Below are positions 16,062 to 50,866 of a stretch of 64,000 nucleotides of DNA, piece by piece (positions within the stretch are counted from its first letter, which is position 1; every line of letters starts with the position of its first letter). Source of the stretch: Patescibacteria group bacterium (GTDB taxonomy: Bacteria > Patescibacteriota > Patescibacteriia > Magasanikbacterales > GWA2-37-8); contig SCQK01000013.1 of the NCBI GenBank assembly GCA_004321885.1, forward strand, positions 96,001-160,000, in the 5' to 3' direction. The position numbers and the translations under genes were made by a program. The notes under the pieces were generated by a model. That model ran no database searches. It was not told the DNA's origin and was given only the letters and a program-made list of their open reading frames with translations.

Positions 16062-16697
16062 ATGCGAACTTCCCTTCCATTTACCCATCGCCAGCTCTCC
16101 CCTTCGCCGCCTTCGCGGCATGAGAAAGGGGAGAGGGGGACGACTGCAATATTGCCAGCTATATTGCTCATCGCGTTTGGCATTGCGGCGAGATTTTTGC
16201 CCCATCCGGCGAACTTTACTCCCATCGGCGCCATTGCTATTTTTGGCGGACTGTATCTGCCCAAAAAACTTTCTGTTTGGCTGCCTCTCTCGGCCATGCT
16301 TATCAGCGATATTTTTATCGGCTTTTATTCATTGCCGATTATGGCCAGCGTGTACGTCGGCTTTATGTTCGCCAATCTGCTATCCTTGACAGCGCGGGGC
16401 AAACTCGCATATACAAAAACCGCCTTTGGGCGGTTTGGGACTATTGCCGGCGCCACGGCGCTAAGTTCAGCCATTTTTTACCTCTTGACAAACGCGGCGG
16501 TTTGGGCATTCGGCTCTATGTATCCGCACAATTTCACCGGCCTTTTGGAATCATACTACCTGGCTCTCCCCTTCTTCCGAAACAGCCTGGCGGGCGACGT
16601 TTTCTTCACTTTCGTTTTAGTAGGCGGGATGGAGTTGCTAAAACATACGTTAAGGGATTCCTCCGCTCTCCGCCGGCTGGCGAATCGATCGGAATGA
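16062..16697 (+). CDS. polytopic membrane protein (ECF-transporter S-component-like); the N-terminal 28 aa are read through a family-D repeat
   Basis: 5-6 predicted TM helices; possible alternative TTG start near 16150. Confidence 0.5.
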   Translation: MRTSLPFTHRQLSPSPPSRHEKGERGTTAILPAILLIAFGIAARFLPHPANFTPIGAIAIFGGLYLPKKLSVWLPLSAMLISDIFIGFYSLPIMASVYVGFMFANLLSLTARGKLAYTKTAFGRFGTIAGATALSSAIFYLLTNAAVWAFGSMYPHNFTGLLESYYLALPFFRNSLAGDVFFTFVLVGGMELLKHTLRDSSALRRLANRSE

Positions 16698-29453: not shown

Positions 29454-29479
29454 AAAAAATCCCCGACTTAGCCGGGAAT
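29454..29479 (-). terminator. hairpin plus U-run downstream of tRNA-Trp (family-E CCCGACTTAGCCGGG hairpin)
   Basis: minus-strand RNA TCCCG-GCTAAGT-CGGGA-TTTTTT. Confidence 0.45.
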
Positions 29480-29489
29480 TTTTTACTTG

Positions 29490-30022: not shown

Positions 30023-30051
30023 TAAAAACAGTCCCGACTTAGTCGGGACTG
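30023..30051 (-). terminator. intrinsic terminator after tRNA-Thr(GGU) (CAGTCCCGA-CTAAG-TCGGGACTG-TTTTT)
   Basis: perfect 9-bp stem plus a U-run immediately 3' of the tRNA. Confidence 0.5.
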
Positions 30052-30061
30052 TTTTGGCGCG

Positions 30062-30323
30062 AGCCGATGAGCGGATTTGAACCGCTGACCACCTCCTTCG
30101 CTTATACTTTATATTGCTATAAAGACTAGACTGTATCTTTGGCTTATCCTTTACCGGACTTAGCCACCCTTGTCAGTCGTTCGCCCGCGATTAGCGGGAC
30201 GGTCTTGTCCCAATTTATTTAGGGATATTAACCGTTATTCGGGATTCACCACGATGTTTCCATCGTGATGGGCGAGGCTTGCGGCTCACCATGGAGGTGC
30301 TCTACCAACTGAGCTACATCGGC
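30062..30323 (-). tRNA. tRNA-Thr (anticodon GGT) interrupted between nt 36/37 by a 189-nt intron (exons 30288-30323 and 30062-30098)
   Basis: joined exons give GCCGATGTAGCTCAGTTGGTAGAGCACCTCCATGGT|AAGGAGGTGGTCAGCGGTTCAAATCCGCTCATCGGCT, a canonical cloverleaf very close to E. coli tRNA-Thr(GGU). Confidence 0.75.
30099..30287 (-). ncRNA. group I-like self-splicing intron in the tRNA-Thr(GGU) anticodon loop
   Basis: 5' exon ends in U, intron ends in G; P1 can form with a U-G wobble (AUGGU|GAG with CUCGCC(C)AU); P2 hairpin CACGAUG-GAAA-CAUCGUG; internal ACAAGACCGUC resembles the Tetrahymena P3/P4 segment GCAAGACCGUC; ACAGUCUAGUC is a P7-like element. Confidence 0.6.
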
Positions 30324-30328
30324 ATTTT

Positions 30329-30988
30329 CTAATTTTTTTTATTTTCCAAAATCCTCATTAATTCATCTCTCATTTTTTTATTATGGTAATAAACTGTTAA
30401 AACTCCATGTCTACTTTTTTCGCGATAAGTACCTTTTCTAACAGACATTGTTATCGTGCTTTTGTAAAATTGATTTTTATTTACCTTTATTTGCCCCTTC
30501 CAAAACCTTAGCGCTTCAGTCACTGAAATGTCATTGAATAACTGAAGGCTAAACTTAAGGTCTTTTCTTCTAATGGAAAAAAATTTAACTAAAAAGTCAA
30601 TAAATTTCTTGACCAATCTTGGGTCAGTATTTCCCAACCTAACTGTGCATTTATCCGCTTTTGTTCCCTCCCCCCAGTATAACCCAAGTCCAAAACCATA
30701 TAAAATTCCCTCTTTTAATGTATGTGGATACTTTATGACAAATGGATCACCGTTTGGGTTATTTTTTTTGTAAATAGCTTCACTGATAGATCTACACGTA
30801 ATCGAATATTTTTCCATCCAATAACGTATTTTATTTACTGAACATTCGAAAATATTGGCAATTTCTTGTGCCGACTTTCCCTGATTTTGATATAATTTTT
30901 GCAAAACACCTTTGCTTATCATATCACAAATTATATCATAGCCGACTGAATAGTACAAGTAACCCCAAGTAGATAATATGGTTGTCAA
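30329..30988 (-). CDS. HTH-containing protein with a degenerate LAGLIDADG-like motif; putative free-standing homing endonuclease between two intron-containing tRNA genes (TTG start)
   Basis: N-terminal HTH (SAQEIANIFECSVNKIRYWMEKY); ILYGFGLGLYWGEGTKADKCTVRLGNTD resembles the single-motif LAGLIDADG core; the ORF opens inside the tRNA-Tyr 3' exon and ends 6 nt before tRNA-Thr. Confidence 0.4.
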   Translation of the reverse strand: MTTILSTWGYLYYSVGYDIICDMISKGVLQKLYQNQGKSAQEIANIFECSVNKIRYWMEKYSITCRSISEAIYKKNNPNGDPFVIKYPHTLKEGILYGFGLGLYWGEGTKADKCTVRLGNTDPRLVKKFIDFLVKFFSIRRKDLKFSLQLFNDISVTEALRFWKGQIKVNKNQFYKSTITMSVRKGTYREKSRHGVLTVYYHNKKMRDELMRILENKKN

Positions 30989-30997
30989 TGAACCTTG

Positions 30998-31291
30998 TGG
31001 GTGGAGTAGGATTCGAACCTACGAAGGCAGAGCCAGCAGATTTCATTTATCCAAAAGTTTCCTTCTAGCATGGACTATATCTTTATCCTATCCGCCAATC
31101 TGGCCGATAGGATACTCTGGTATCTAGTCTCTACGGCGCCCCCGACTTTGCCGGGGTTCCCACGGTATTAGCATGCCCGCCAGTTGGCGGATTTAGCTTT
31201 CACCGTTATCCCAGAGAGTTCATCCTAAAGTTACCTTTAGGAGCTGCGTTTCAACACAGTCTGCTCCAGTTGACCACTTTGGTATCCACCC
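30998..31291 (-). tRNA. tRNA-Tyr (anticodon GTA) interrupted between nt 35/36 by a 212-nt group I intron (exons 31256-31291 and 30998-31043)
   Basis: joined exons GGGTGGATACCAAAGTGGTCAACTGGAGCAGACTGT|AAATCTGCTGGCTCTGCCTTCGTAGGTTCGAATCCTACTCCACCCA: type-II tRNA with a long variable arm and an anticodon loop CUGUAAA identical to E. coli tRNA-Tyr. Confidence 0.8.
31044..31255 (-). ncRNA. group I intron (IC3-like, Azoarcus/cyanobacterial tRNA-intron type) in the tRNA-Tyr anticodon loop
   Basis: contains GUAGAGACUAGA, identical to the P7/P3 core of the Azoarcus tRNA-Ile intron; P3-like GCUAAAUCCGCC; 5' exon ends in U and the intron ends in G. Confidence 0.7.
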
Positions 31292-50602: not shown

Positions 50603-50679
50603 ACTATGAATATAATCTCATTCGCTCAGAACTGAATTAATAAATTAATTCAGTTCGCTCGCTCATTTCGATTATAAAC

Positions 50680-50704
50680 AAAAAATCTGTGTTTCCACAG
50701 ACTA
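50680..50704 (-). promoter_or_regulatory. candidate attenuator hairpin plus U-run inside the long rplJ leader
   Basis: minus-strand TCTGTGG-AAAC-ACAGA-TTTTTT about 80 nt upstream of the rplJ ATG; the leader is about 235 nt. Confidence 0.35.
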
Positions 50705-50837
50705 ATCCCGCCAAAGGCGGGCAAGAGCGCAAATCGACCTATACTGTCATTCCGGCTTCCGAGCCGGAATCCAGTTCTTTTTTGCACCTCGGCAGGTAAT
50801 TAAGCCCTTTCGGACACCTGCTGTCTATGGTGACAAT

Positions 50838-50866
50838 AATATACAGGAAGCATAAAAAAATGTCAA
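50838..50866 (-). promoter_or_regulatory. sigma70-like promoter TTGACA-17-TATATT for the rplJL operon
   Basis: consensus -35, 17-nt spacer, near-consensus -10. Confidence 0.4.

Follow-up and report, generated by a model that had tools for sequence, protein, structure and literature searches.

In the 64,000-nt stretch of DNA analysed here (the window), we identify with high confidence a tRNA-Thr(GGU) gene with a 189-nt group I intron inserted between U36 and A37. The intron has no ORF, belongs to the 'divergent' family, would be removed by splicing and has a putative endonuclease gene as its neighbor. What can be read directly from the window and its homologues are the exons and their boundaries, a core that is conserved and covaries, and the membership in this family. 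The 5′ exon (30288-30323, minus strand) supplies tRNA positions 1-36 and ends in the anticodon GGU, the 3′ exon (30062-30098, minus strand) supplies positions 37-73 with a discriminator U and no encoded CCA, and the intron (30099-30287, minus strand) closes with its terminal G (omega G) at 30099. Joined in minus-strand order (30323-30288 followed by 30098-30062), the exons yield a 73-nt sequence that ARAGORN calls as tRNA-Thr(ggt) with a regular cloverleaf, so that the exon coordinates and tRNA identity proposed in the initial annotation, which was made from the sequence alone, are exact; its description of an exon ending in U and an intron ending in G is also correct, with U36 preceding the splice site and G at 30099. 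An alternative, intron-free tRNA at this locus was looked for as well, and tRNA calling on the unspliced 30062-30323 region returned none, while the Rfam tRNA model gave only a partial match of 15 bits. The spliced window tRNA is 81% identical to the intronless tRNA-Thr(GGU) of a metagenome contig (L124) that carries a homologue of the neighboring ORF.

Using a pattern scan (GGTAGAGC-N7-TGGT-N(135-165)-AGATAYAGTC) over one genome per species, we matched at least 119 loci. In at least 113 loci, complete tRNA-Thr(GGU) exons are split at this position by an intron 158-266 nt long, and these homologous introns are 47-71% identical to the window intron. Since TGGT and AGATAYAGTC were preset in the search pattern and are invariant by construction, their columns are uninformative on conservation. 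In the window and its homologues alike, the insertion falls between positions 36 and 37 of the host gene tRNA-Thr(GGU). The 5′ exon is kept across at least 113 homologous loci, AA opens the 3′ exon in 114 of 114 parsed family members, and the same 114 of 114 have the terminal intron G, a residue that the parse itself required. In total, carriers of the family number at least 113 genomes at the species level plus 49 metagenome contigs, and those among the matches listed are nearly all Patescibacteria MAGs from many classes. One pattern match, in Membranihabitans (L104), was rejected as it is not a tRNA and has no match to the family model, and a third AGATACAGTC at window position 16258 was set aside as a chance match inside a coding region.

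The family model is a covariance model (R1) built from 56 members from other genomes, with the window left out. R1 matched window positions 30290-30099 end to end (model positions 1-201 of 201) with 167.1 bits and an E-value of 6.5e-50, and because this match runs from the exon GGU to the terminal G it fixes both the membership and the boundaries of the intron. The Rfam group I model RF00028 scored the Thr intron at 26.2 bits, below the required 50 (local E-value 1e-4), with a sensible alignment restricted to the 3′ half, namely P8′, J8/7, P7′ and P9 (AAAGAUACAGUC...), and its gathering score was reached by the Thr intron in none of 16 related loci. The initial annotation had allowed for a different insertion type if the insert failed all group I covariance models; a sub-threshold score with RF00028 was indeed what we found, but the failure does not extend to the family-specific R1. 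Its main proposal, a group I intron at tRNA-Thr(GGU) 36/37, is well supported, with all core helices present, covariation in the variable ones, an invariant U.G at the splice site, and a P7 and J8/7 that fit the consensus.

The same family was also observed in a cultured member of the Bacteroidota, Niastella populi CCTCC AB 208238 (L045 5234-5417, NZ_LWBP01000002.1; 168.8 bits with R1), where the ORF is absent, suggesting that the intron has spread past Patescibacteria. A Pedobacter MAG (L007) and several MAGs labelled Gammaproteobacteria or Bdellovibrionales are carriers too, with labels that may be unreliable.

A covarying group I core in 189 nucleotides

The complete group I core from P1 to P9, including the P3/P7 pseudoknot, is contained within the 189 nt of the intron (30287-30099; all helices below are on the minus strand). 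P1 (30271-30290) is formed by the exon GGU and intron GAG (30290-30285) pairing with the guide CUCGCC (30276-30271), which places U36.G at the splice site, and its loop contains a C-GCAA-G mini-hairpin. The same P1, with GGU|GAG opposite CUCGCC and the U36.G wobble included, was obtained in the minimum free energy (MFE) fold of the whole precursor; its three exon pairs, one of them the U.G, show no variation in 113 of 113 homologues, and its three intron pairs covary. P2 (30247-30270), found both in the MFE fold and by RNAalifold, has 10 bp capped by a GAAA tetraloop (30260-30257). All 10 of its pairs show changes on both sides, and its loop is of the GNRA type, in which the G and the two final As each reach 90% conservation or more. 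A P1 with a U-G wobble and a P2 hairpin had already been drawn in the initial annotation, and both appear in the MFE fold, where P2 is longer than first drawn. Its assignment of ACAAGACCGUC to a P3/P4 strand was misplaced, as the covariation-supported fold puts this segment in J5/4 and the 3′ strand of P4.

The 5′ strand of P3 (CCC, 30241-30243) pairs with GGG at 30169-30167 to form the pseudoknot with P7, and all three pairs switch from C-G to U-A by double change, in 6-7 sequences each. P4 (ACGGUU/GACCGU) lies around P5 (UCCC/GGGA, 30225-30222 with 30211-30208), the two together occupying 30199-30235; P4 is unvarying in 113 sequences and P5 covaries. The P6 hairpin (CCCGC-UAAUC-GCGGG, 30184-30198) is a whole-helix variant of the GGCGN/NCGCC found in most relatives, and since both strands have changed between the window and its relatives, the helix is preserved. 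The 5′ strand of P7 (GACUG, 30174-30178) pairs with CAGUC at 30133-30129 in what is presumed to be the guanosine-binding helix, which is constant in 113 sequences, its 3′ strand alone being fixed by the search pattern. The P8 hairpin (GGCU..UCC / GGA..AGCC, 30141-30165) is present in the MFE fold and both of its parts covary, while J8/7 together with the 3′ strand of P7 (AAAGAUACAGUC, 30129-30140) fits the RF00028 consensus gAAGAUAUAGUC. The P9 hairpin (CUUUAUA-GCAA-UAUAAAG, 30107-30124) covaries and is followed by UAUAAGCG up to omega G.

The fold was recovered in several ways. The MFE fold of the insert alone contains the P1 extension, P2, P4, P5, P6, P7 (GACUG/CAGUC), P8 and P9, and RNAalifold, run unguided on a plain MAFFT alignment, recovered the anticodon stem, P1, P2 and P4-P9. 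In the alignment with the pseudoknot structure (A1), 91.6% of cells are paired, compared with 35-46% when the partners are slid by 1-3 columns; leaving out the window sequence gave 92.6% compared with 34-47%. Changes on both sides were observed at 44 of 59 pairs in A1, with heavy covariation in P2, P5, P6, P8 and P9, and none of 500 shuffles matched the observed values. P2.1 and P7.1/P7.2 are absent by eye from the Thr intron, an arrangement that, judged in the same way, looks IC3-like.

The tRNA gene cluster and its LAGLIDADG-fold ORF

On the minus strand, the cluster consists of tRNA-Thr(UGU) (31382-31311), a split tRNA-Tyr, an AT-rich ORF, the split tRNA-Thr(GGU), a terminator-like hairpin, rpmG (L33) and tRNA-Trp. 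The split tRNA-Tyr(GUA) gene (30998-31291, minus strand) has a 212-nt group I intron (31044-31255) at 35/36, where the exon ends in GU and the intron in G. This is the only intron found in the window by RF00028 at its gathering threshold, with a passing score of 61.7 bits, and R1, the model of the Thr family, gives it only 22.7 bits. The two introns are alike in lying in the same cluster on the same strand, in being ORF-less group I introns of the anticodon loop, and in having the common core motifs AUAACGGU, ACCGU and AAGAUAYAGUC. Judged from the low R1 score of the Tyr intron, however, they belong to different families and are not copies of each other.

We observed that the two introns and the ORF vary independently among related loci. 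In the closest relative among the matches listed (L088), the ORF and the Thr intron accompany an intact tRNA-Tyr, one locus (L120) has the full window arrangement, Tyr intron included, and two others (L027 and L062) have both introns with no ORF between them. This pattern fits gain and loss and not transfer from tRNA to tRNA. The intron mobility within the cluster suggested in the initial annotation is supported only in part, as far as independent presence and absence go, but not as movement of one intron between the two genes, and mobility of the locus is plausible given that the ORF between the introns is a probable homing endonuclease. In L027 (4084-4638) and L062 (7997-7452), the split tRNA-Tyr gene is immediately preceded by a distant paralogue of this LAGLIDADG-fold ORF (26-28% identity), a hint that each intron-bearing tRNA gene may have a paralogue of its own.

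Additional features were noted around these genes. Seven loci (L019, L028, L033, L037, L058, L091 and L105) have a second, near-identical copy of the 36-nt 5′ exon 130-165 nt upstream of the split tRNA-Thr. The copy is followed by AA and unrelated sequence, then by a spacer with a promoter-like TATAAT-type motif, an exon-2-like fragment and the real split gene; its break point is at 38/39, 2 nt from the intron site, and the ORF is present in none of the seven. These extra exons may be scars of double-strand-break repair. Downstream of tRNA-Thr(GGU), a terminator-like hairpin read from the sequence (ACAGUCCCGAC-UAA-GUCGGGACUGU plus a U run; 30024-30052, minus strand) lies 10 nt past the gene. 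Similar GC-rich hairpins with a CUAAGUCGGG core and U runs follow both tRNA-Thr(GGU), at 30024-30052, and tRNA-Trp, at ~29455-29485 on the minus strand, and both look like intrinsic terminators; a consensus terminator scan listed neither. Elsewhere in the window, the Rfam scan identified a ribosomal protein L10 leader (RF00557, 53.6 bits; 50671-50848, minus strand), an ordinary cis-regulatory element.

The ORF directly upstream of the split tRNA-Thr(GGU) gene (30329-30922, minus strand) encodes 197 aa, with an HTH at the N-terminus and one LAGLIDADG-fold domain, and terminates in a stop codon 5 nt ahead of the tRNA 5′ end. The encoded protein is annotated as coming from a Patescibacteria group bacterium, which identifies the host of the window as a member of this phylum. 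It has a GC content of 31%, compared with 50% for the window, and the GC of the ORF is below that of its flanks in 95 of 97 loci. Pfam gave only weak HTH matches and no match to a LAGLIDADG model for this ORF, and a sequence-profile search of the PDB found the HTH only. Its AlphaFold model is confident (pLDDT 89.6), and it is assigned to the LAGLIDADG fold, with comparison values of 9.1 for the TliVMA intein endonuclease, 7.3 for WhiA, 7.1 for I-DmoI and 5.2-6.7 for E-DreI, I-Tsp061I, I-CeuI, I-Vdi141I and I-CreI; the N-terminus resembles HTH domains. At least 1105 homologous protein clusters exist, all annotated as hypothetical, and the homologues have an invariant G-x-G-x-GLYWGEG-x-K motif, whose helix closes with a conserved acidic residue (E85, invariant in 38 of 38 sequences). 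The ORF is probably a free-standing homing endonuclease linked to tRNA-Thr(GGU). Truncated or frameshifted remnants of 22-129 aa were observed beside the tRNA in L005, L035, L039 (in two frames), L083, L089 and L118, a pattern expected from the decay of a selfish endonuclease gene. Together with the sporadic presence of the ORF and its low GC, these decayed copies are indirect evidence for homing.

We then counted the association from both sides. Among the intron-centred loci (at least 113), a full-length ORF homologue lies immediately upstream on the same strand in 38, a partial or decayed remnant in 9 and a distant ORF paralogue nearby in 13; 46 have no ORF, and in 7 the upstream sequence is too short for judgement. 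Among 80 ORF-centred metagenome loci, tRNA-Thr(GGU) is directly downstream in all 78 that could be judged, carrying an intron by R1 in 49 and being intronless in 29, with neither state assignable in 2. The intron is thus enriched near the ORF when compared with the complete genomes in the literature (49/78 vs 3/95, Fisher p = 5e-19, for samples that are non-independent and uncorrected for phylogeny), and the counts are best read as an ORF that is enriched beside the intron yet not dependent on it. Mean identity to the window ORF is alike for ORFs beside intron-bearing and intronless genes. Two further patterns were considered and rejected. Most ORF-linked intronless genes have changed anticodon stems that could confer immunity, but the stems of L186, L140, L181, L141 and L193 are like those of intron-bearing genes, and a division of the ORFs into two deep clades, one beside intron-bearing and one beside intronless genes, was dropped at a nearest-neighbor concordance of 0.82 compared with 0.65 for shuffled data.

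Because 29 of the 78 ORF-linked genes are intronless, the intron is not required for protection of the host gene, and such cases speak against immunity being conferred simply by the intron. The states seen side by side among the loci are intron only, endonuclease gene only, both, and a decayed endonuclease gene. The probable endonuclease gene has most likely colonized the DNA just 5′ of tRNA-Thr(GGU) genes, and the tightly linked intron may spread with it through co-conversion. We tentatively suggest, as a possibility that falls somewhat short of the likelier course, that the HTH-LAGLIDADG family is a free-standing homing endonuclease lineage specialized on the tRNA-Thr(GGU) of Patescibacteria and forms, with the ORF-less Thr intron, a natural collaborative-homing system of cellular genomes, for which these four states would be expected. 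In the literature searched, no paper was found that connects an ORF of this type with the tRNA genes of Patescibacteria.

Predicted splicing and alternative readings of the locus

The Thr intron is probably self-splicing. A precursor of ~262 nt would be transcribed from the split gene and the intron would fold into P1-P9, with the GGU at the end of the exon pairing with the guide GCC to set U36.G at the 5′ splice site. Exogenous guanosine held in P7 (GACUG/CAGUC) would then attack after U36, the terminal G of the intron (30099) would next occupy the guanosine site in P7, and the freed 3′-OH of U36 would attack there. Ligation of the exons would yield the 73-nt tRNA-Thr(GGU), to which CCA would still have to be added. 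We infer these steps, and with them catalysis by the Thr intron, from the well-known reactions of group I introns (see the summary in PMC3984707).

The reading that retains some weight against this route is that the RNA is group I-like and not autonomous, and that it folds and splices only with the help of a protein, for which the product of the adjacent LAGLIDADG-fold gene would be a candidate maturase. Maturases of the LAGLIDADG type are known in the mitochondria of fungi. Also in favor of this reading, the Thr intron is small and lacks peripheral domains, its core has been termed 'divergent' and is missed by RF00028 (PMC13011429), the ORF is directly upstream in 38 of ~106 informative intron-bearing loci, and 49 of the 78 ORF-linked tRNA-Thr genes have the intron. 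However, 46 intron-bearing loci have no ORF in the sequence examined and another 9 keep it only in incomplete or decayed form, while 29 ORFs adjoin intronless genes. In addition, the conserved L2 is of the GNRA type and the L9 of the window intron is GCAA, and loops of this kind usually give self-stabilizing RNA-RNA contacts. We consider protein dependence unlikely and retain the self-splicing intron as the preferred reading.

The identity of the host gene can also be read differently. In its intron mode (-i), ARAGORN moves the boundaries by two bases and reports tRNA-Arg(gcg) i(35,189), which would make the gene a tRNA-Arg(GCG) with an intron at 34/35, and two published cases are tabulated with the same miscall (PMC13011429). 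With this parse, though, G instead of U precedes the 5′ splice site and the invariant U.G wobble is lost. Extended to the whole family, the Arg-type parse would leave one conserved tRNA body with three different anticodons (69 genes with GCG, 43 with GUG and 2 with GAG), and ARAGORN itself labels the relatives variously as Thr, His or Arg, whereas the Thr(GGU) parse is constant across the family. The tRNA body is moreover Thr-like, its acceptor start GCCG and U73 being those of the window tRNA-Thr(UGU). On the G before the splice site, the mixed anticodons and the constant Thr(GGU) parse, we reject the Arg(GCG) parse, which has a negligible chance of being correct.

That the locus is a dead tRNA gene broken by a decaying insertion is just as improbable, for although the window covers only 64 kb of the genome and a second, intact tRNA-Thr(GGU) copy could lie elsewhere, both exons are intact and the intron core is strongly constrained, as compensatory changes in over 110 genomes at the species level show. 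The published complete genomes with a Thr intron also speak against it, as tRNAscan-SE calls only two tRNA-Thr genes in them (PMC13011429 supplementary table), which implies that the split GGU gene was missed in the count. The gene hidden in this way, a functional split tRNA-Thr(GGU) by our reading, is probably essential.

Comparison with known systems

An intron of this kind has already been described in Patescibacteria. Nakagawa et al. (2026, mSystems; PMC13011429) reported 'divergent group I introns' at 36/37 of tRNA-Thr(GGU) in three complete Patescibacteria genomes, using a term that follows Castelle et al. (2018, Nat Rev Microbiol; via PMC13011429). These published introns are undetected by RF00028, two are called by ARAGORN as Arg(GCG) 34/35, and they form a long branch within the IA clade; the splicing assays in that study covered the Asn and Asp introns only (PMC13011429). 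The window intron agrees with them in host gene, anticodon, site, phylum, the failure of RF00028 and the Arg(GCG) miscall by ARAGORN, and with no essential difference between them it is another member of the group. A Wolfebacteria locus in our set (L043, CP011209), which scores 160 bits with R1, appears to come from one of the published genomes, if CP011209 is taken to correspond to GCA_001029635.1.

What is added here is a family far wider than the three published cases, a covariation-backed P1-P9 structure, carriers outside Patescibacteria, most prominently Niastella populi, and the link between the Thr intron and the upstream LAGLIDADG-fold ORF, which Nakagawa et al. (PMC13011429) do not mention. 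Because ARAGORN and Rfam both miss the split gene, standard annotation is distorted, both in tRNA counts and in completeness estimates of Patescibacteria, and the family-specific covariance model together with the structure provides a means of annotating Thr introns. As a cultured carrier, Niastella populi makes splicing testable in vivo and is a possible laboratory system. The intron itself is of modest interest; the part most worth pursuing is the linked LAGLIDADG-fold family, which is large and unannotated and offers a testable natural system for the spread of ORF-less group I introns and the origin of mobile introns. The tRNA introns of Patescibacteria have been argued to be rarely mobile on the grounds that they are without endonuclease genes (PMC13011429), and the collaborative-homing reading, if true, contradicts this inference of immobility.

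Two other systems offer comparisons. Reinhold-Hurek and Shub reportedly described in 1992 ORF-less group I introns after the third anticodon base in the tRNA-Ile of Azoarcus and the tRNA-Arg of Agrobacterium. Introns at 36/37 of tRNA-Arg are present in Pseudomonadota and Cyanobacteriota (PMC13011429). The Thr intron is like these tRNA-Arg/Ile anticodon-loop introns in its position after U36, its size of ~200 nt, the lack of an ORF, the minimal P1-P9 core and the GNRA-type L2, and the window intron also resembles them in its GNRA L9. They differ from it in the host tRNA, in being classed as IC3 and in being detected by RF00028.

The second comparison is with collaborative homing in phage genes, where a free-standing endonuclease and an ORF-less intron have the same target site (Hausner, Hafez and Edgell 2014, PMC3984707). 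The locus described here is similar in that an endonuclease-fold gene lies outside the intron, ~50-150 bp from the insertion site, at the same gene. Unlike the phage systems, it is found in a cellular genome and a tRNA gene, its protein combines a LAGLIDADG fold with an HTH, and 29 of the 78 ORF-linked genes are intronless.
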